Origin: a virus
Lineage: Duplodnaviria > Caudoviricetes
Reading direction: 5' to 3' (one strand)
Virus record (IMG/VR): IMGVR_UViG_3300020043_005902
Span: 1-32,901 of that record
DNA: 32,901 nucleotides
Of this stretch, positions 2,066 to 32,901 are shown one piece after another. A program made the translations under genes and the position numbers. The notes beneath the pieces are model-generated. The model was not told the origin of the DNA, made no database searches, and worked only from the letters and a program-made list of their open reading frames with translations. How positions within the stretch are numbered: the stretch's first letter is position 1; every line of letters begins with the position of its first letter.

Positions 2066-2299
2066 ATGCAACTCATCGCCAAAAACCTCGCCTCAATCGG
2101 GCGACTCTTAATCAAAGACATGATTAAAAACAAACCTGCCAAAATGACGCCAGACCAAGCGTTTCATCACGGAGTCGAATCTGCTGTCGAAAAAGACGGA
2201 TTTTCGCGAAATGCTTTCTTCGGTCAAAAAGAGAACTTCAAAGCCTACCGGGCGGGATACGCCTCCATTGACCCAAACCTCTCGACTTCATATCGCTAA
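2066..2299 (+). CDS. Hypothetical early protein, 77 aa
   Basis: ORF directly downstream of the promoter, with an A/C-rich leader, followed by a hairpin. Confidence 0.6.
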   Translation: MQLIAKNLASIGRLLIKDMIKNKPAKMTPDQAFHHGVESAVEKDGFSRNAFFGQKENFKAYRAGYASIDPNLSTSYR

Positions 2300-2313
2300 C
2301 CGCCCACCGCTCC

Positions 2314-2345
2314 CGCCCCGCCCGTAAAAACGGCGGGGTTTTTGG
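2314..2345 (+). terminator. GC-rich hairpin plus U-tract (copy 1 of a duplicated element)
   Basis: CCCCGCC-cgtaaaaac-GGCGGGG-TTTTT just after the stop at 2299. Confidence 0.6.
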
Positions 2346-2361
2346 GTGCCAACTCAACACC

Positions 2362-2484
2362 ATGAACCCAAGAGAAAAACAACCATCAAGCCTTTCAGGC
2401 GCTGGACTTCCAACGCGATTCCAGCGGCTCCTAGACAGCCAATTCCGCAAAAGAGCCAACCGCAAAGCCAAGGCCCGCAAATGA
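2362..2484 (+). CDS. Small basic hypothetical protein, 40 aa
   Basis: MNPREKQPSS...RKAKARK; its TGA overlaps the next ATG (ATGA at 2481-2484). Confidence 0.4.
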   Translation: MNPREKQPSSLSGAGLPTRFQRLLDSQFRKRANRKAKARK

Positions 2485-2993
2485 ACGACCGAGACCAAAA
2501 CATTGCCCTGGCGGAGTTCCACGGATGGGAAGGCGTCCCCGTGAAGAACGTAACAAAGGAACGGGACGGGGTGATTTATTGGAGGTCCCAGACGCCGGAC
2601 GGGCTTGAGAAATACAGCAGCAGCTTTGAAAGTTCCTGCGCAATTCGATGGCTCAAAAAGCCAGACGGAAGCCCGTTCTTAATCAGGTCAGGACCGATAA
2701 CACTAAATAACGTTGATACATATTCAAACGTAATCGCATTGGAGTATTCAAAAGCCAACGGATACGGCAAAGCTCCCCCCGACGTGAAGCCAAGTCTGGC
2801 TTATTTCTTAGAATACCTTCCTAATTATGGGGCCGATCTGAACGTGATGCACGATGTCGAGAAGCTGATCCCATTAAAAGATTTGATCAACTACTTAGAT
2901 ATTTTATCAGATTTAACTAAATACAATTCATCATTCGCCACGGCATTGGAGCGAAGGGAGGCTTTACTTAGGACAATTAGGAAATGGAAATAA
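2481..2993 (+). CDS. Phage ABA-sandwich-like domain protein (paralogue 1)
   Basis: Start MNDRDQNIALAEFHGW; LPNYGADLNVMHDVE and EALLRTIRKWK are shared in pattern with 4017-4355. Confidence 0.6.
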   Translation: MNDRDQNIALAEFHGWEGVPVKNVTKERDGVIYWRSQTPDGLEKYSSSFESSCAIRWLKKPDGSPFLIRSGPITLNNVDTYSNVIALEYSKANGYGKAPPDVKPSLAYFLEYLPNYGADLNVMHDVEKLIPLKDLINYLDILSDLTKYNSSFATALERREALLRTIRKWK

Positions 2994-3003
2994 ACCCCAC
3001 CCT

Positions 3004-3036
3004 CGCCCCGCCCATCAACACGGCGGGGCTTTTCGG
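3004..3036 (+). terminator. GC-rich hairpin plus U-tract (copy 2)
   Basis: CCCCGCC-catcaacac-GGCGGGG-CTTTT just after the stop at 2993; same stem and loop length as 2314-2345. Confidence 0.55.
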
Positions 3037-3052
3037 TGAACACTTAAAGCTT

Positions 3053-3796
3053 ATGAATCCGATTACACTGAAGTCCAAGTGCTTAGAATTGCAAAAGACT
3101 TCGCCAGAATTAACTACGCAAAAGATTATAGCATCAAGTCCAATTCTTTATGTAAAACAATTGGAAGAAGAGTCTGGCGAGAAATTTAAGCCAATTTATG
3201 ATTTATGCACTCCACCTCAATTTAATTGTTTTCTATTTGATTTCCCGTTTCTTGAAAGAAGGGGGCAGGGCTTTTCTGTCTTTGAAGATGGATGTTTTGC
3301 ATTTGTTTTTACGATGGGTGAAAACATTTACAAATTGACTGTGTTTGCAGATGAAACATACATAGTCCATTATTTTCTTTTTAATAAATGGCATGTAGCA
3401 AACGAAGACCCTACTTTCAAAAACAGCGGTCATATTTTACTGGGTGTCATATTTAAGTCTCTTTCTCTTTTTAGGAGTCCTTTATTTGTTAACGTAAAAT
3501 CTTCACCCTCTAAGCTAAATAGCAAATCCGTGGAATGGGTCAAGGTCCGCGAGTATTACACCGTAGTTCACCGCAAGCATGAGGCAAACGCCAAGGGAGC
3601 CGCCGAACTTGGCACCTACGGGGACAACACCCACAAACGTATTGCGCACGCCCGCAAGGCTCACTTCCGCATCCTACGTTCGGAAAAGTGGGGAAAGAAC
3701 CAAGGACGCAAGGTTTTTGTTTCAGCCACTTGGGTCGGACCCCGCGAGTGGATCGATGCCGACTCAAAGCAAATTTATTCAGTCCAAGGACGATAA
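3053..3796 (+). CDS. Hypothetical phage protein, 247 aa, with a C-terminal HxRxxHxR...WVG motif
   Basis: Likely start is MNPITL, after the hairpin. The 5' part is visibly AT-rich. The C-terminus HARKAHFRILR...FVSATWVG resembles a widespread uncharacterised phage family. Confidence 0.6.
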   Translation: MNPITLKSKCLELQKTSPELTTQKIIASSPILYVKQLEEESGEKFKPIYDLCTPPQFNCFLFDFPFLERRGQGFSVFEDGCFAFVFTMGENIYKLTVFADETYIVHYFLFNKWHVANEDPTFKNSGHILLGVIFKSLSLFRSPLFVNVKSSPSKLNSKSVEWVKVREYYTVVHRKHEANAKGAAELGTYGDNTHKRIAHARKAHFRILRSEKWGKNQGRKVFVSATWVGPREWIDADSKQIYSVQGR

Positions 3797-3808
3797 CAAA
3801 CTTTCATC

Positions 3809-4006
3809 ATGACCACACCACGCAAACCAAACCCGCGCAAACCGGGCCGCAAACCGGGCCGAAAGATGTCCGCCGCCATCACGTTCGGAGCCACGCCGGA
3901 TGCCGCCCAATTGTGGCGGAAAACGCTTCGGCGATATGGCATAAAAGCCGCGCCGTTTTATCGGGAGGCGATTGACGGAGCGATTGGAAGACTTTTAATT
4001 AAGTGA
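3809..4006 (+). CDS. Putative ribbon-helix-helix DNA-binding protein with a basic PGRK-repeat N-terminus
   Basis: PRKPNPRKPGRKPGRK followed by a short beta strand (AITFG) and two helices. Confidence 0.5.
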   Translation: MTTPRKPNPRKPGRKPGRKMSAAITFGATPDAAQLWRKTLRRYGIKAAPFYREAIDGAIGRLLIK

Positions 4007-4016
4007 ATTTACTATT

Positions 4017-4355
4017 ATGAAACCTGACGAAATTAACATTGCGATTGCTGAGTTCTGCGGATTTACTAACATCACAATTGAAAATATTGCGAATTATAGC
4101 GAGATGCATGGGACGCTCAATGAATGCGATATCGTTCCAATCCCCAACTACTACGGCGACTTGAACGCATGTAGAGATGCTTTGCTTAAACTACCGGATG
4201 ACCTGCACCACGAATACCACCGCCAACTCTACATTCTGACCAAGCCGATGCCGTTTGATATGTGGGCGCACAACTGGCATTTTCTTACTGCTGGCCCTGA
4301 CATCGTGAGCGCCGCAATCGTTCGGACAATCGGCAAATGGAGGGGCGGGCAATGA
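4017..4355 (+). CDS. Phage ABA-sandwich-like domain protein (paralogue 2)
   Basis: MKPDEINIAIAEFCGF...IPNYYGDLNAC...AIVRTIGKW, paralleling 2481-2993. Confidence 0.6.
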   Translation: MKPDEINIAIAEFCGFTNITIENIANYSEMHGTLNECDIVPIPNYYGDLNACRDALLKLPDDLHHEYHRQLYILTKPMPFDMWAHNWHFLTAGPDIVSAAIVRTIGKWRGGQ

Positions 4356-4642
4356 GTGAGTCTTCCCCCGCTGATACAAGAGCCGGGTTGCCTCCAGCGA
4401 CTTATTCGGCGTTTGAATTGCCGACAAAGTGCGGGTTCTATTGGTGGCGCGAAGATGCAACCAAGGACTGGCGACTCGTGGAACTTATGGACTTTGGTTC
4501 TGGCAGAATCATGACCTACGACCTTGATGAATGTGAATGGTCAGGGCGCTCTTTGGAGATTTGGCGCGAAGATTTCCCGATTGGAGAGTGGCGTTATATC
4601 GTGCCGCCGAGCACCAAGGTGAGCCACGCGGCTGGCGAATAA
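4352..4642 (+). CDS. Cassette A gene, hypothetical Trp-rich protein
   Basis: ATGA overlap with the previous gene; LPTKCGFYWWRE motif; stops inside the attC at 4606-4729. Confidence 0.65.
   Translation: MSESSPADTRAGLPPATYSAFELPTKCGFYWWREDATKDWRLVELMDFGSGRIMTYDLDECEWSGRSLEIWREDFPIGEWRYIVPPSTKVSHAAGE
4381..4410 (-). mobile_element. Degenerate half attC site (R''-L'' arm only)
   Basis: Minus strand: GCCGAAT-AAGTC-GCTGGAGG-CAACCCGGCT, colinear with the R''/L'' arms of the two complete sites. No complementary arm was found. Confidence 0.6.
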
Positions 4643-4729
4643 CTTTAGAAACTATTATCATGTCACAATCAAAGAAACCTTCCCCCGACACAGCAGAGAG
4701 CCGCGTTGCGCTCCACCGTTTTGTTCGGC
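4606..4729 (-). mobile_element. Integron attC site, 124 bp (R' GTT mutated to GCT)
   Basis: Minus strand: R'' GCCGAAC, 5 nt, L'' GGTGGAGC (extra base), stem ACGCGGCT...AGCCGCGT, L' GCTCACC, 5 nt, R' GCTCGGC. Confidence 0.75.
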
Positions 4730-4836
4730 CTGCCTTGGTGTCTTGCCCTGCGTGCCGGGGCTACGATTTAGAGCGCCAATGGTGCGACAAATGCAAAACA
4801 ACGGGCGTAGTTGAATTAAGAGGAGGTTCCAAGTGA
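4660..4836 (+). CDS. Cassette B gene 1, small CxxC...CxxC zinc-finger protein, 58 aa
   Basis: ATG lies in the attC loop; CPACRG...CDKCKTTG (DnaJ-like Zn-finger pattern). Confidence 0.55.
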   Translation: MSQSKKPSPDTAESRVALHRFVRPALVSCPACRGYDLERQWCDKCKTTGVVELRGGSK

Positions 4837-5084
4837 AAGGCAGTCTGTCGGTGCTGATGATGACTGCTGCGCTCATGGAATCTCAGGGGCTGCGATTCCA
4901 CAATTTTGAAGCAGCATCAAGAAAACCAAAGCCCGGCGAAAAGACCGCCGCCGACTTCGCCGCTATTGCGCGAGCCAAAGAACGCCGGAAACGCAAAGCC
5001 GAGCGTAAAGAACGGGAACGCCAACGCCAGCCGAACCGTCTGGCTGAGCAACGCGGCTCCAACGATGGAGGGACAACGCCATGA
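4833..5084 (+). CDS. Cassette B gene 2, basic hypothetical protein
   Basis: GTGA overlap with the previous gene; AIARAKERRKRKAERK; stops inside the attC at 5030-5120. Confidence 0.6.
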   Translation: MKGSLSVLMMTAALMESQGLRFHNFEAASRKPKPGEKTAADFAAIARAKERRKRKAERKERERQRQPNRLAEQRGSNDGGTTP

Positions 5085-5120
5085 GCCAAAAGCCGCGTTC
5101 GCTCCAGCCACTCGTTCGGC
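5030..5120 (-). mobile_element. Integron attC site, 91 bp, intact
   Basis: Minus strand: R'' GCCGAAC, 5 nt GAGTG, L'' GCTGGAGC (8 nt with extra G), G, AACGCGGCT...AGCCGCGTT, L' GCTCAGC (7 nt), 6 nt CAGACG, R' GTTCGGC. This is canonical attC geometry. Confidence 0.85.
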
Positions 5121-5416
5121 CTGCCTTGGTGGAGTCTCGGTGGGATTGGCTCGTTGCCTCGACAAGCAAGGCCCTGCCATGCGGCAGAGTCACCGTGTCT
5201 TTACGACTGCTGGATGAAGTGTGCCAAAATGCTGCCGTCCTGCACGCATGGAACGGCCAGAAACGGGCGGAAGCCCTGGCTCTGGCCATAGGTGCGTGTT
5301 TTGAAATTCACCATGACAGCGTGATTCTCTGGCCGCCGCCCGCTGGGGAATCCGCGCAACCCACAAAGGTAACTTCAAAAAGGATTTCGGGGTCGACATT
5401 GAGTGTTACGTTTTGA
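5081..5416 (+). CDS. Cassette C gene, hypothetical; the tail after about 5338 is read-through into the P63C remnant
   Basis: ATG lies in the attC loop and overlaps the previous TGA. The sequence switches to P63C-like DNA after WPP. Confidence 0.55.
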   Translation: MSQKPRSLQPLVRPALVESRWDWLVASTSKALPCGRVTVSLRLLDEVCQNAAVLHAWNGQKRAEALALAIGACFEIHHDSVILWPPPAGESAQPTKVTSKRISGSTLSVTF

Positions 5417-5820
5417 GTGATGCCAAAAAGACGGCCGTCATTAGCCAAAGCGGATTGGCAAGAGCCGTTGGCTTTCGAACCGGAGCGACCCAAATAACTC
5501 GTTTTCTAGCTTCCAAATCAATGAAGGGATACGTCGGGGTTGAACTTCTTGAAAAACTATCGCAACCCATTAAGTTTCAATGGACTCCCCTTGAGGTTGG
5601 ACAGCCTCCAACAGCGGGATACGGCTTTGACGTAACGCTCCTTATAGACATTTGTAGGGCCATAGACGACGCCCACAGGGCTGGGCGGCTTAGTAGCCGC
5701 CACACCGAGGCGCAAGAGCCCTAAGAATGCAGCTTGGGCGTGTGCTTGAAATGTCGGAATCTTCCGCCTCAAGGATCGAGTATGAGAAAAAGATTATTGA
5801 GCGCTTTGGCGGTCAACCCG
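5330..5820 (+). pseudogene. Remnant of a P63C-domain (Mx8 p63-like) protein gene; 5'-truncated, internally deleted and frameshifted
   Basis: One frame reads AAARWGIRATHKGNFKKDFGVDIECYVLSDAKKTAVISQ...LIDICRAI...GRL. From 5709 another frame reads GARALRMQLGRVLEMSESS...YEKKIIERFGGQ. These resemble the two ends of P63C proteins. Confidence 0.7.
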
Positions 5821-7320
5821 CGAATAAAGCGCGCCGTTCTTGGAAATAAGCCCGGCCCGCTGCAATTCGTTCAGGCGTTTGTCCGCTGTGGTTCGTGCGC
5901 AGTTGGCCGCCCGCATGATCCGCTCGTGGAGCATCGAATAAGGCATGGCCCCGCCGTCCCAGTCATCAAAGGCATCTCGGCAAAGTGTGGCCAGCCTGTC
6001 AGCGGCTGAGACCTGGGCGAGTGATTGGACGGCGGTGAAGCCGTCGCCGGTCGACACTGAAATGTGCATCTTCGCTTGGTCGCACCAGCGGAAAACGGGA
6101 GGCTGTTTGATACCTCCATGCCTCGCGTCTTTGGTGGCCAGTGTGATGTGGTCAACGCCTTGCACTTGGTCTTTTTTGAGGAGCAGAATCGTTTCGCTCT
6201 TCTGTTCAAGCATCGTCCCCAGGTGACCTCTCCCTTTGTCGCTTTCCTTGCCTTTCTGTGAGCCGGGGTTGACGTGGAGCGTTGAGACGATTGCGCATCC
6301 GGTTTCCTCACAGATTTCCATAAGGTCGTTGATAAGCCCAGTGGCCTCCCGAACGTCGTTGAAGTCTTGGAGGAGGTCCACCAACCCGTCAACCATCAGC
6401 AAGGCCAGCCCTCCTTCCTTGTGAGCCTTGCGAGCGGCGGAAAGCATGATCTTTCGGCGGTCAGTTGAAGAGAACCGGCGGACGTGAAGGGAGGAGAACC
6501 AAGCCGGGAAGTCCGTCCAGGCGGCACGGCGCAAGGTGCGGACCATCATGGCATAATGGTCCCGCGCGCTTTGTTCGGTGTCGAAATGAATCACCCGCTG
6601 GCCTTCCGGGACGCGGCCTTGAAAGCTGAGAAAATCAGAACCGGCCAAGCCAAACAGGGATGCAATGATTGCGGATTGCGTGGTGGATTTGCCTGACTTC
6701 TGGGGAGCAATGATTGACATGATATTGCCCGGGTGAAGTATTTCGGTGTCCACCAACTTGAGAAGCCAGGGAGCCTCCACCGGCGGCTTGGCCAAGTCAA
6801 AGCGGAGAGCCTCGGCCTTGGCCAGAAGCTTGGCGGCGGACCTCGGCTCGCGCTTCTCCCCCGGCTCAACTGCCGCCCCCAAGTCTGCCAGCGCCTCGGC
6901 TTTGACGGCGATTTCAGCCAGCGTTTGACCGGCCTTGACGGCCTCGACGATGGCAGCAGCAGACTGAGACAGGCGGCGGGCGGTGTAGGCATCCCGAACG
7001 GCTTCCATGTAGGTTCGGGCAAGGGCGGTTGACTCCACCCGGTTGCCGACCCGGTTGACCTCGGCAGGTCCGCCGACAAACTCAAGTTGGCCTTCCTTGT
7101 GGAGTTGCTGGCACAAAAGGATGTCGTCAACGGGTCCGGCAAGTCGAGTGAGCGCGCCAAAGATGGCCGAACATTGCGAGCTGGCGAAGGAAGCCGGGGA
7201 GATGCCGAGTTCAACGGCGCGGGCAACAACGTCGCCGGATTCGTCCAGAATACAGCAAGCAATCAGGGCTTCCTCGGCGTCAACGTTGGCCGGGGAGCCG
7301 CGTGAGGTGGGCAGGGTCAT
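5794..7320 (-). CDS. Replicative helicase: DnaB N-terminal domain fused to an AAA_25/RepA-like ATPase, 508 aa
   Basis: PANVDAEEALIACCILD (DnaB-N); Walker A APQKSGKS; HFDTEQS, MVDGLVDL, LHVNPG, RGHLGT. Start placed at MTLPTS. Confidence 0.8.
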   Translation of the reverse strand: MTLPTSRGSPANVDAEEALIACCILDESGDVVARAVELGISPASFASSQCSAIFGALTRLAGPVDDILLCQQLHKEGQLEFVGGPAEVNRVGNRVESTALARTYMEAVRDAYTARRLSQSAAAIVEAVKAGQTLAEIAVKAEALADLGAAVEPGEKREPRSAAKLLAKAEALRFDLAKPPVEAPWLLKLVDTEILHPGNIMSIIAPQKSGKSTTQSAIIASLFGLAGSDFLSFQGRVPEGQRVIHFDTEQSARDHYAMMVRTLRRAAWTDFPAWFSSLHVRRFSSTDRRKIMLSAARKAHKEGGLALLMVDGLVDLLQDFNDVREATGLINDLMEICEETGCAIVSTLHVNPGSQKGKESDKGRGHLGTMLEQKSETILLLKKDQVQGVDHITLATKDARHGGIKQPPVFRWCDQAKMHISVSTGDGFTAVQSLAQVSAADRLATLCRDAFDDWDGGAMPYSMLHERIMRAANCARTTADKRLNELQRAGLISKNGALYSRVDRQSAQ

Positions 7321-14321: not shown

Positions 14322-15155
14322 TTAAGATTTAAGAACAGAAGGAGGGACCGGAGTTGGCTCTGTGTCGTCGCCAATAAGTCCCGGTATTTCGTCCGGCTTG
14401 CGGACTGTTGGCGTTGGCTGGTTGGTAAAAACGGCAGCGATTTCAGCAGGGAGAACACCCTTTTCAAAAGGCAATAAGTCCGGCAATTCATACCTGTTTT
14501 TAGCGTCAAAGGCGGCGGTTCCTACGCAGTGAATCACGCGGCCGACTCCGCCCGTAGCCTTCGCCTTTCCGTCGCCTCCCTTAACGATTCTGGTATCGTC
14601 ATTGATGAAAAGAATCATGTCCGCCCACTCTTTCAAGTGTCGCAAATTTGACTGCTTGTCGGAGTTGTGAAGGGTGATTTCATACTTCGTATAACCCTCC
14701 GTTTGGTCAGGCGGCGAAACCTTGACGGTGCGAGAGTGAGCAAGAAAAACCACGTTAAAGCCGGTGGCAATAAGGCGCTCGGCATACTTTATGACCTTGG
14801 CAAACTCTTCGCATAAATGGACATAGCCTTTCCCGTATCCAAAGTCTTCCACACTGTCCTTTTTGGCAATCTGGCATATGTGAGTTGACGCTAGACGTTC
14901 AAGCCAATCGGCAGTGTCGAAAACAACGGTCTTGAAGTCGGCCTTGTGATTCTTTCCTATCTCTACGATACAATCCAAAACTTCCTGCCATGTCGAAGGC
15001 TCAAAGCGGGCAACGTCCAAGTGATAAGTTCCACCTTCAACGTCAATGAAAACGGGCGATGGGAGAAGTGAGGCGAGCGAAGACTTGCCCCGCCCTTCTG
15101 GCGAGTAAATTACAGCCCTGACCGGGCTTTTTTTGATTCCTCTAGAGAGTTTCAT
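14322..15155 (-). CDS. AAA_24 family ATPase (Sak4-like recombination protein)
   Basis: IYSPEGRGKSS, FIDVEGGT, VVFDTADWLE, FGYGKGY, FLAHS, KEWAD, AKNRY. Confidence 0.85.
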   Translation of the reverse strand: MKLSRGIKKSPVRAVIYSPEGRGKSSLASLLPSPVFIDVEGGTYHLDVARFEPSTWQEVLDCIVEIGKNHKADFKTVVFDTADWLERLASTHICQIAKKDSVEDFGYGKGYVHLCEEFAKVIKYAERLIATGFNVVFLAHSRTVKVSPPDQTEGYTKYEITLHNSDKQSNLRHLKEWADMILFINDDTRIVKGGDGKAKATGGVGRVIHCVGTAAFDAKNRYELPDLLPFEKGVLPAEIAAVFTNQPTPTVRKPDEIPGLIGDDTEPTPVPPSVLKS

Positions 15156-30496: not shown

Positions 30497-30519
30497 TTAT
30501 TGCAAAGTTTTTGCGTTAA
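30497..30519 (-). promoter_or_regulatory. Conserved late-region motif TTAACGCAAA-N4-TTGCAATAA (copy upstream of the protease gene)
   Basis: 7 nt upstream of the ATG at 30489; same arms as 21924-21946. Confidence 0.55.
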
Positions 30520-31351
30520 GGTCAAGCGGTTTGTTGCAAATCTTTTGCAGGAACCGCCGTCTGCGTGCCGTCAAGCATCGCAAGCGCCTCACTTCCAAGG
30601 TTTTGCAGAATCCAGAGGCGGCGGTATTGGTCATAAGTAATACCCAAACTGTCCGCCCCCTTCTGAAATTCTTCTTCAGGGGTCTGACCGTAAAGGGCAA
30701 AATACTCATCAATGGACATGTTCATCGTCCTGACCTCTTCCAAGATGGCCTTGGTATCCCTGCCAAGGTCAATTGAGAGGTCACGCGGGCGGCGGAAACC
30801 TACGTCCCACCAACCGTCAACGGCCTCGACTCGCTTGGCGTCAATCTCATAGGCCAGCCAATGCAGCATCAGGCGCTGAAGGACAGGCCACAGGATGGCG
30901 TCTTGAATCATTTCAATCCTGACCTTCGCCTTTTCGATAATCGTCCGCTGTTGGGTGCCTTGTGTGCTGCCAAGGAAAACAAAGTCGTATGGCCAGCGCA
31001 CGGCCGAACAAAACTCCCGAACAAAGTTTTCCTTGAACGGGATGAAGTATTGGCCTGGATATTCCGGGCGCATGTTCGTGATTTTGGAGCCAACCGGAAC
31101 ACGCTGCATGGTTACGCCGGTAATTTTTTCAAACCGTTGACCGCCTGGGATGTCGGCAGTCGGAGCGGTCTTGATTCCCAGCGTGGCGTCCTTGGCGCTT
31201 TGAGTAGGGCCGCCGTCCTCATACAGAACGGCGGTTGAGAGTTGCAGTTTGTAGCCAACTTTCGCCAGTGCGTTCAGTTCGGAGACATCAAACAGCGAGT
31301 TAATGGAGGATGTCCAAGACGGACCAACTCGCAACTGTCCAGCCCTGACCG
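30506..31351 (-). repeat. Left arm (846 bp) of a diverged inverted duplication
   Basis: Reverse complement matches 32056-32901 at both ends, has the same length and encodes a colinear protein. Confidence 0.9.
30522..31351 (-). pseudogene. C-terminal ~275 aa of portal 2, variant allele lacking its N-terminus
   Basis: From VRAGQLRV onward it matches 31440-32891 with 24 substitutions plus a different last few residues. The frame is intact, but the first ~25 aa of ORF 30522-31424 are unrelated. Confidence 0.8.
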
Positions 31352-31439: not shown

Positions 31440-32891
31440 ATGTTCCTCAAGATTTTTCCCACCCTTAAATCCTCCTTTCCCTACGTTTTTTGGGGCGGAT
31501 CAACGTCCTTCACCGAGGGCGCGCAGACGAACGAAAACCGCAACAAGTCCGGAGCCGTCGAGCCGCGTTCCGTGATGGAGGAAATTTCCTCCTATTCGCG
31601 ATGGGAGGCTGTGAAGTTCTGCCGCTTCATCGAAAACAACCAGTCCGCTACCGCTGGCATTATTTCCGACATGGTGGATTACTCCGTGCGCACCGGTTTG
31701 ATTCCCGTTTTTCGAGGCGGGGATAAGGCTTGGCGCGCCAAAGTCACCAAGAGTTTCAAAGAGTTTTGTAAATCACCAACCGCCGCCGGAACGAACGACC
31801 TGACAGCCGAGTTAAAGGTCATCGCCCGTGCTGTGTTCCGCGACGGCGAGGTTTTCCCCATGTTCACGGAGAAGCCAGACGGGACGCCATGCCTTCAAAC
31901 GCTTGAAACTCATGTCTTTAAGAATAAGTTCGGCGGAGTTCCTGCCGATGGTTTTATTGACGGCGTTCGTTACAATGAGGCCGGAGAACCGCTTGAATAC
32001 CAGACATTTACAGGCGAGAAGCGACCCGCCTCCGCCATCCTCCACATTTGCGAGCCGGTCAGGGCTGGACAGTTGCGAGTCCCTCCGCCTTGGACCTCCT
32101 CAATCAATAACCAGTTTGATGTCAACGAGTTGAACGCGCTGGCAAAGGTCGGTTATAAACTGCAACTCACCACTCCGGTTCTTTATGAAGACAGTGGACC
32201 GGCTCAAAGCGCCAAGAACAGCACGCTAGGAATCCAAACCGCCCCGACTGCCGACAGCCCCGGCGGTCAACGTTTTGAAAAAGTCACAGGCGTAACCATG
32301 CAGCGTGTTCCAGTTGGTTCCAAGATCACGAACATGCGACCGGAATACCCAGGCCAGTTCTTCATTCCGTTCAAGGAGTCATTCATTCGGGAGCTGTGCG
32401 CTTGCCTCCGCTGGCCCTACGACTTCACGTTCCTTGGCAGCACGCAAGGCACCCAACAGCGGACCATCATTGAAAAGGCTAAGGTCCGCATCGAAATGAT
32501 TCAAGACGCCATCCTCTGGCCTGTTCTTCAACGCCTGATGCTGCATTGGCTGGCCTATGAAATTGAAGCCAAGCGAGTCGAGGCCGTTGACGGATGGTGG
32601 GACGTAGGTTTCCGCCGCCCGCGCGACCTCTCAATTGACCTCGGACGCGACACCAAGGCCATCTTGGAAGAGGTTCGCACGATGAACATGTCCATTGATG
32701 AGTATTTTGCCCTTTACGGTCAGACCCCCGAAGAGGAATTTCAGAAAGGCGCGGACAGTTTGGGCATTACCTATGACCAATACCGCCGTCTTTGGATTCT
32801 GCAAAACCTTGGAAATGAGGCGCTTGCGATGCTTGACGGCACGCAGACGGCGGTTCCTGCAAAAGATTTGCAACAAGCCGATTTACCTTAA
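31440..32891 (+). CDS. Phage portal protein, lambda family (portal 2), 483 aa
   Basis: CRFIENN, FRDGEVF, DGVRYNEAGEPLEY, GQLRVPPPW, RPRDLSIDLGRD. Confidence 0.85.
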   Translation: MFLKIFPTLKSSFPYVFWGGSTSFTEGAQTNENRNKSGAVEPRSVMEEISSYSRWEAVKFCRFIENNQSATAGIISDMVDYSVRTGLIPVFRGGDKAWRAKVTKSFKEFCKSPTAAGTNDLTAELKVIARAVFRDGEVFPMFTEKPDGTPCLQTLETHVFKNKFGGVPADGFIDGVRYNEAGEPLEYQTFTGEKRPASAILHICEPVRAGQLRVPPPWTSSINNQFDVNELNALAKVGYKLQLTTPVLYEDSGPAQSAKNSTLGIQTAPTADSPGGQRFEKVTGVTMQRVPVGSKITNMRPEYPGQFFIPFKESFIRELCACLRWPYDFTFLGSTQGTQQRTIIEKAKVRIEMIQDAILWPVLQRLMLHWLAYEIEAKRVEAVDGWWDVGFRRPRDLSIDLGRDTKAILEEVRTMNMSIDEYFALYGQTPEEEFQKGADSLGITYDQYRRLWILQNLGNEALAMLDGTQTAVPAKDLQQADLP

Positions 32892-32901
32892 CGCAAAAAC
32901 T
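32056..32901 (+). repeat. Right arm (846 bp) of the diverged inverted duplication; ends at the window edge
   Basis: Starts with a 25-bp perfect match to the reverse complement of 31327-31351. Ends CCTTAACGCAAAAACT, the reverse complement of 30506-30521. Confidence 0.9.

Follow-up and report, generated by a model that had tools for sequence, protein, structure and literature searches.

A short, partly decayed array of mirrored attC cassettes in a phage contig, likely reshuffled by an integron integrase

Introduction

The locus described here raises the question of how a row of small phage genes, separated by sites that resemble those of integron cassettes and read on the strand opposite to these sites, is exchanged between related phages, and whether an integron integrase is responsible for the exchange. 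The locus lies in a linear virus record of 32,901 bases, which was analysed over its whole length and is referred to below as the window; CheckV rates its completeness at 42%. The original prediction for this DNA had described an attC cassette array without integrase, placed in an early operon, and had proposed that the phage shuffles accessory genes with a host integron integrase acting in trans.

In the part of their study considered here, Qi, Rajabal, Ghaly, Tetu and Gillings (2023; PMC9892861) reported 17 CALINs among 10,705 phage genomes, and 5 of 6 tested phage sites recombined with attI1 under IntI1, with the bottom strand being preferred (PMC9892861). The phage CALINs comprise at least two attC sites in a phage, with intI absent, and the window array is similar to them in having two sites by the attC grammar and no intI. 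Since both phage CALINs and their recombination by IntI1 have been published, the headline of the original prediction is known in kind. The considered part of the same study describes neither an antisense, translated layout nor natural swaps, of which its figures and annotation file may show cases (PMC9892861), and the considered part of another source (PMC8618304) mentions neither orientation nor antisense. In the literature searched, whose coverage was partial, we found no account of a reversed, translated layout, and phage attC sites appeared only in Qi et al. The reading that we favour, with a probability of about two in three, is that the window holds a short, partly decayed array of mirrored cassettes, which is likely reshuffled by an integron integrase, probably one borrowed from the host.

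attC sites in the window

The attC-type sites of the window are real, and their coordinates and anatomy hold (Table 1). Two complete minus-strand sites and one half site had been predicted; site C is canonical and the half site is present as a single arm, whereas site B is of full length but has its R' core changed to GCT. The anatomy predicted for site C was confirmed box by box: the R'' box GCCGAAC is followed by a 5-nt spacer, an L'' of 8 nt that includes an extra base, a further stem of 9 bp containing another extra base, a 7-nt L', a 6-nt spacer and the R' box GTTCGGC. R'' ends with AAC and R' begins with GTT, the two boxes are complementary at 7 of 7 pairs, and the predicted fold of the site has an energy of -47 kcal/mol. 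The loop contains a stop codon, a GGAGG motif resembling a ribosome-binding site, and a start codon. The non-canonical site B has an intact R'', perfect pairing of L'' with L', a 5-nt spacer and the R' box GCTCGGC, and its loop carries the stop codon of gene A and the start codon of the next gene. Both sites have an 8-nt L'' with an extra-helical base opposite a 7-nt L', together with a further stem that contains unpaired bases.

When the whole 32.9-kb window was scanned with the attC grammar, only these two full sites were found, with scores of 22 and 19; in 25 shuffles (822,435 bases) there was no match of 19 or more and one of at least 18.5. We also built a covariance model from 50 bacterial attC sites, which gave site C 50.9 bits on the minus strand (E 4e-11) versus 14.9 bits on the plus strand; this model is not fully independent, because its bacterial loci were obtained through the pattern derived from the window. 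Minus-strand matches of a covariance model had been expected for both sites, and this held well for site C; site B (4611-4729) reached only 17.5 bits (E 0.01), which is below the 20 bits used by Qi et al. with other models. The half site gave no match to the covariance model, and Rfam gave no match in the window. Judged by the CALIN criterion of at least two close co-oriented attC sites, the window contains two by grammar, the second of which has the 17.5 bits mentioned in our own model. Additional patterns made from single arms returned either no match or eight matches without any attC, which were treated as chance.

Table 1. Features of the cassette array and associated elements in the window.
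Feature	Position	Strand	Evidence or remarks
112-aa gene just upstream of the array	4017..4355	+	stop overlaps gene A start (ATGA); ends without attC left arm
Gene A, 96 aa, function unknown	4352..4642	+	homologues, ORF
Half attC, R''-L'' arm only, R'' = GCCGAAT	4381..4410	-	sequence; partner arm absent
attC site B (124 nt; GCT as mutated R' core)	4606..4729	-	anatomy, covariance model, relatives
Cassette B, two plus-strand genes	4612..5035		424 bp, R' crossover to R' crossover
58-aa CxxC-CxxC protein	4660..4836	+	phrog_11137 (unknown function), E 9e-12
18-nt repeat, copy 1: site B R'' box and 11 nt beyond	4723..4740	+	
83-aa basic protein	4833..5084	+	ORF, homologue P0004
attC site C, 91 nt, fully canonical	5030..5120	-	anatomy, grammar scan, covariance model
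Gene C, 111 aa, function unknown	5081..5416	+	homologue P0009
18-nt repeat, copy 2: site C R'' box and 11 nt	5114..5131	+	
Remnant GCCG of third R' box	5332..5335		relative continues here into intact attC left arm
Start-less gene fragment fused at third R' remnant	5332..5724	+	phrog_2384, E 4e-10; frame open from about 5320
Sak4-like ssDNA annealing protein	14322..15155	-	phrog_124, E 3e-45

Gene orientation and reading frames at the sites

The array appears to work like a CALIN but lacks the gene orientation of canonical cassettes, as all supported ORFs lie on the attC sites' bottom strand, i.e. antisense to them. Gene A starts before the half site and extends across the R' box of site B into the loop of this site, where it ends; the 58-aa gene begins in the same loop and reads out through the R'' arm. 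The 83-aa gene translates R' of site C as Pro-Asn, and its stop codon in the loop overlaps the next start (ATGA), which is that of gene C, a gene whose natural end has been replaced in the window strain. Each hairpin stands in front of its gene, the loops hold a stop and a start codon, and the upstream gene translates the AAC of R' as Asn, or as Ser at site B with its mutation, before it stops in the loop. With antisense genes that take both stop and start codons from the sites, the units differ from textbook cassettes. No function was obtained from the ESM Atlas for gene A or gene C, and the cassette genes had no match above a weak level in NCBIfam and Pfam. Gene A has three homologues with 83-90% identity, and its look-alike clusters are mostly viral hypothetical proteins. 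The family matched by the fused fragment, phrog_2384, is presumably P63C-like.

The sedentary chromosomal integrons of the Verrucomicrobiota/Planctomycetota type have the same R''-L''-L'-R' order, extra-helical L'' bases and very similar arm sequences, and their crossover likewise takes place at the AAC triplet of R', according to the part of PMC5027507 considered here. They differ in that their ORF is mostly on the top strand, whereas the window array is antisense and intI is absent. In order to compare the layout more widely, the two-arm pattern derived from the window was applied to viral sequences, yielding 71 loci, and the same pattern yielded at least 130 bacterial loci. Grammar sites were present in 46 of the 71 viral loci, with up to 12 in 6 kb, and in the other 25 none was found by grammar. 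Sites with less than 200 nt of flank were left out before the layout was counted. Of the viral cassettes, 56 of 70 had their longest ORF on the bottom strand, compared with 16 of 68 bacterial cassettes (Fisher p 3e-11), these numbers being inflated by related loci, because only identical duplicates were removed and several viral loci are near-duplicates. A top-strand ORF was found in 52 of the 68 bacterial cassettes. Similarly, an ATG in the loop opens a long ORF at 57 of 105 viral sites versus 18 of 133 bacterial sites.

The reading frame at R' was also biased. At 66 of 103 viral sites a long bottom-strand frame that ends inside the site has AAC as one of its codons, and the other two frames were found at 8 sites each; the three frames at R' of bacterial sites were found 24, 22 and 13 times among 124. 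At R'' the frame was spread (43, 35 and 20 of 112). A fixed frame at R' combined with a free frame at R'' would be expected if cutting takes place at R' and the stop codon comes from the following cassette. The genes of the phage CALIN TJE1 have the canonical orientation and likewise translate AAC as Asn, and the fixed frame may therefore have another cause.

The opposite orientation could also be understood if the sites were passively captured remains of a host integron, with the true genes on the minus strand and the plus-strand ORFs being chance antisense frames. The window does have only one canonical site, and another viral locus, L041, also has some gene-like top-strand ORFs as judged by eye. 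We consider this explanation very improbable, since the plus-strand ORFs overlap by stop-start tetramers and have PHROG matches, their proteins are conserved in relatives that carry different hairpins, and the plus-strand layout is that of the majority in viral, not in bacterial, arrays.

As regards TJE1, both sites that were found in this published CALIN lie on the same strand as its genes, whereas the window has antisense genes and a start signal inside the hairpin. The co-oriented genes of TJE1 (L227, sites at 244-293 and 1016-1075) run into the hairpin at both of these sites, translate AAC as Asn and end in the loop.

It should also be mentioned that L041 (1-6098) carries at least 12 attC sites in 6 kb, and that in several of its cassettes the top strand has ORFs that look like genes by eye and are overlapped by an antisense frame that is open. 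These top-strand cassettes are possibly host-type cassettes taken into a mirrored array. Two bottom-strand genes of L041 resemble what we take to be MT-A70-type methyltransferases.

Breakpoints in related sequences

Breakpoints were analysed in contigs from eight sequencing runs, which come from other phages in metagenomes and were matched to the window at 85% likeness (151-476 nt, depth 2-6), and in homologous proteins, where the breakpoints were read from amino acids and not from DNA. Changes in gene content at GCCGAA|C had been predicted for relatives, and the sequence was indeed found to change at AA|C of R' at three junctions; an inserted 272-bp cassette in a pair of other loci agreed with this as well. 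At the first junction, the gene A homologues P0001 and P0006 diverge directly after Pro-Pro-Asn; the homologue P0007 has the left arm of the window in common for four residues and diverges later. An X5 contig matches positions 4247-4610 and then continues with a different attC left arm. Base 4611, in R' of site B, is an intact A in the X2, X3 and X5 contigs. At the second junction, P0004, a homologue of the 83-aa protein, departs from the window sequence directly past the Pro-Asn of site C. At the third, an X5 contig matches 5149-5335 and continues into an intact attC left arm, and the gene C homologue P0009 has Pro-Asn followed by another tail; in the window this junction keeps 4 nt of R', unlike a clean crossover. 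The tails of the relatives differ and the window has a fused fragment in their place, so the array had at least three R' junctions and is decaying in the window strain.

The 272-bp cassette is present in L051 and absent from L020; its limits fall exactly at the crossover, the flanking DNA is 99-100% identical, and the target of the insertion has a degenerate core. Additionally, L020 and L061 have in common a block of 433 nt that extends from R' to R' with 97.9% identity. In a comparison of 40 pairs, R'' fitted the start of its own cassette better than the composite site in 24, with the opposite in 6 and a tie in 10 (p 0.0014), a test of core complementarity that cannot distinguish which box is cut. 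An enzyme of the IntI type is the likely agent of the exchange at R'.

Cassette A had been described as fixed owing to mutations in both of its core triplets. The fixation stands, but its cause is the missing left arm of the cassette itself: the R'' box of the half site is intact in relatives (4404 A>G in the X5 and X6 contigs), and a relative in which both triplets are intact lacks the arm too. The junction of the 112-aa gene with gene A is bridged without a left arm in the X2 and X5 contigs as well. Cassette B, predicted to form a circle of 424 nt with complementary boxes, does have this length and such boxes. Its excision is likely impaired in the window strain, because the AAC triplet is changed at the partner site B; this triplet supplies the micro-homology for strand transfer, according to the part of PMC5027507 considered. 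The predicted 424-bp excision was not seen in the eight runs, in which coverage was thin and the cassette body was uncovered from about 4741 to 5088, a gap that at such coverage does not speak for absence of the body; a different joint, with a skip of 391 bp on the R'' side, was found instead. Being the only canonical site here, site C could likely still accept a cassette.

Junctions on the R'' side

The only joint seen is in one contig of 240 nt from X4, with a depth of 2.3, in which the sequence jumps over 391 bp from one 18-nt repeat to the other on the R'' side. The contig is identical to the window on both sides of the skip and does not give the direction, i.e. a loss there or a gain here. 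The skip could result from recombination of the top strand, with cuts in R'', or from short-homology recombination. Top-strand recombination of attC sites as described by Nivina et al. (2016), in the part of PMC5027507 considered here, takes place in R'' and could account for the 391-bp joint. The same source, within that part, presents this reaction as disfavoured and as inverting the whole cassette together with its attC, (PMC5027507), whereas in the window the attC sites share one orientation and the reversal is confined to the genes.

Moreover, the junctions between start arms and gene bodies vary from 0 to 12 nt beyond R'' (P0009 and the loose ends of X3, X6 and X8). An arm of the A type precedes gene A (window, P0001 and P0007), a homologue of the 83-aa protein (P0004), gene C (P0009) and another body in X6, and in X3 and X8 arms similar to that of site C stand before other gene bodies. 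Such grafts differ from clean G|TT crossovers, which points to a second route near R''. Such variable junctions are not predicted by bottom-strand IntI recombination, and they count against a simple model with this reaction only.

The R''-side junctions also bear on an explanation in which no integrase is needed, the hairpins being only short homologous repeats and translation modules between which genes are swapped by phage annealing proteins such as the Sak4-like one. A comparable case is provided by the PeSL motifs of T4-like phages, which are stem-loop exchange points with expression signals between variable genes as well, and for which shuffling by homologous recombination has been published (PMC4122927, in the part considered). 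The 391-bp skip uses a perfect repeat of 18 nt, the start arms are followed by different gene bodies with variable points of joining, and a Sak4-like gene is present in the window, its predicted product being a candidate for the short-homology route. PeSLs, as presented in that part of PMC4122927, are promoter-terminator motifs, whereas the sites of the window have attC anatomy and no promoter signal of the sigma-70 type above chance. Annealing as the sole process appears unlikely to us, since the breakpoints fall repeatedly at AA|C with little common sequence beyond, the core of the L051 insertion target is degenerate, and homologous recombination alone would not maintain the extra-helical bases, the strand asymmetry and the cassette-specific core complementarity that are kept in the sites.

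Integrase genes in viral and bacterial genomes

The predicted lack of a tyrosine recombinase was upheld, as the 32.9-kb contig (42% complete) has no match to PF00589, and no intI adjoins the array in the window, which includes both flanks of the array with an integrase gene on neither. Among 42 viral records with such sites, a PF00589 gene was found in 7, and among the 11 near-complete records in 1. Five of these seven were tested with TIGR02249; none passed the cut-off, and only the protein of G031 came near to it. G031 is a tailed phage with terminase, portal and capsid genes, in which a mirrored site is followed by a plus-strand gene and then by an IntI-like gene (L073:120-1464, L045:2128-3807). 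The plus-strand gene ends at an R'-like box that is complementary to its own R''. The IntI-like gene obtained 256.8 bits with TIGR02249 (cut-off 265), and its best match among solved structures is IntI4 (E 2e-52). The geometry fits that of intI, attI and array, with the genes co-directional with intI. The circular join of G031 lies within a duplicated cassette and might be due to assembly, but a single stretch carries both the last site and the integrase gene. G031 ties the mirrored layout to IntI and shows that action in trans is not universal.

An integrase above the TIGR02249 cut-off was present in 4 of 5 tested bacterial genomes with this type of attC, and in 28 of the 101 genomes from the phylum to which the Opitutaceae isolate belongs. 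The cassettes and the chemistry would be the same if the integrase were the phage's own and were encoded in the unsequenced part of its genome. This is conceivable in a linear contig rated 42% complete, and the IntI-like gene of G031, placed directly after a mirrored site in an intI-attI-array geometry, is in its favour. We regard it as improbable, given that PF00589 genes occur in just 7 of the 42 records and in 1 of the 11 near-complete ones, that none of the five tested passes the TIGR02249 cut-off and G031 alone is near, and that both flanks of the array are in the window without an integrase. The integrase is probably borrowed from the host, a view that is drawn from an incomplete contig. 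With regard to the shuffling by a host enzyme that had been proposed originally, the attC-type sites and the R' breakpoints support the exchange itself, whereas the action in trans had been deduced from this incomplete contig and G031 carries its IntI-like gene in cis.

Proposed model and implications

For a mirrored array that is reshuffled by an integron integrase, we propose the following model. IntI would cut the folded bottom strand, which would here be the coding strand. A cassette would consist of a hairpin with the start signal and of a gene body, and the next cassette would give the stop codon. Translation through the left arm would open the hairpin in the mRNA and could couple expression along the row. 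A second route, probably short-homology or top-strand recombination, would join start arms to new bodies near R''.

A more far-reaching interpretation, which we offer tentatively and hold to be possible rather than probable, is that phages of integron-bearing environmental bacteria have a mirror-image integron, with the attC hairpin also serving as a portable translation-start module: the grafting of start arms onto unrelated gene bodies, a few bases past R'', would make cassettes, and IntI would shuffle the resulting units at R'. The A-type arm on four bodies, and the B arm in front of either the Cys-motif gene or gene C, would then be snapshots of cassette creation. To our knowledge, the mechanism by which cassettes are created is still open for integrons.

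What the window adds are breakpoints at R' at the level of strains, a recent loss of function, the grafts on the R'' side, and the lead to G031. If IntI reshuffles phage genes by means of reversed cassettes, integrons would be a two-way system that phages use too, and its frequency would be far above that in surveys of isolated phages, as one narrow pattern gave sites in 46 of 71 viral loci. The mirrored layout predicts both the crossover point and the reading frame, and the arm-to-body grafts in relatives would be a natural system for studying how gene cassettes first arise. The copy in the window is a modest example, with one canonical site.

Genomic context and putative host

Most genes of the window are on the minus strand and encode head, tail, portal, DnaB-like, helicase, methylase and Sak4-like proteins. 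The array is part of a block of small plus-strand genes (2066-5724) that is convergent on the replication module. Promoter-like matches of the sigma-70 type were at chance level (4 found versus 3.6 expected), and none was inside the attC sites. The predicted location in an early operon was not supported by this arrangement.

A member of Verrucomicrobiota is the likely host, a weak assignment that relies on the similarity of the arms and on Sak4 homologues. The closest matches of the arms are in loci labelled Opitutaceae or Verrucomicrobia and in one MAG labelled Paceibacterota. Homologues of Sak4 show up to 47-49% identity in the phylum that includes the Opitutaceae isolate (36 of 401 genomes) versus at most 37% in that of the Planctomycetaceae locus (15 of 401 genomes). 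The DnaB search in 301 genomes returned two distant matches, uninformative on the host. Direct relatives of the phage were sought with gene A, which gave one weak match of 12 residues in viral contigs and none among 192 candidate stretches of metagenome contigs, as well as with DnaB (0) and with the 112-aa gene (0 of 2); in a blastn search with positions 4000-5800, isolated phages gave three short, weak matches.

Several minor observations were made in the window. Three portal-like stretches and no recognised terminase are present in the contig. A portal gene is near-duplicated in inverted orientation (30506-31351 and 32056-32901, 87% identical over 847 nt), the minus-strand copy being partial; two strains may have been joined into a chimera where the contig ends. 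Another portal-like ORF, divergent in sequence, lies at 45-1958 on the minus strand (TIGR01539, E 0.0035). The plus-strand genes at 2481-2993 and 4017-4355 resemble paralogues by eye, with similar starts, middle motif and ends, and without a Pfam match. A gene of 270 aa (2984-3796), without a family match, lies where the window is richest in AT (GC about 0.41) and contains a GCCGAAC at about 3603 that has no partner arm. Finally, the DnaB-like gene contains an imperfect inverted repeat of 30 nt (7042-7227) and a small hairpin (6993-7019).
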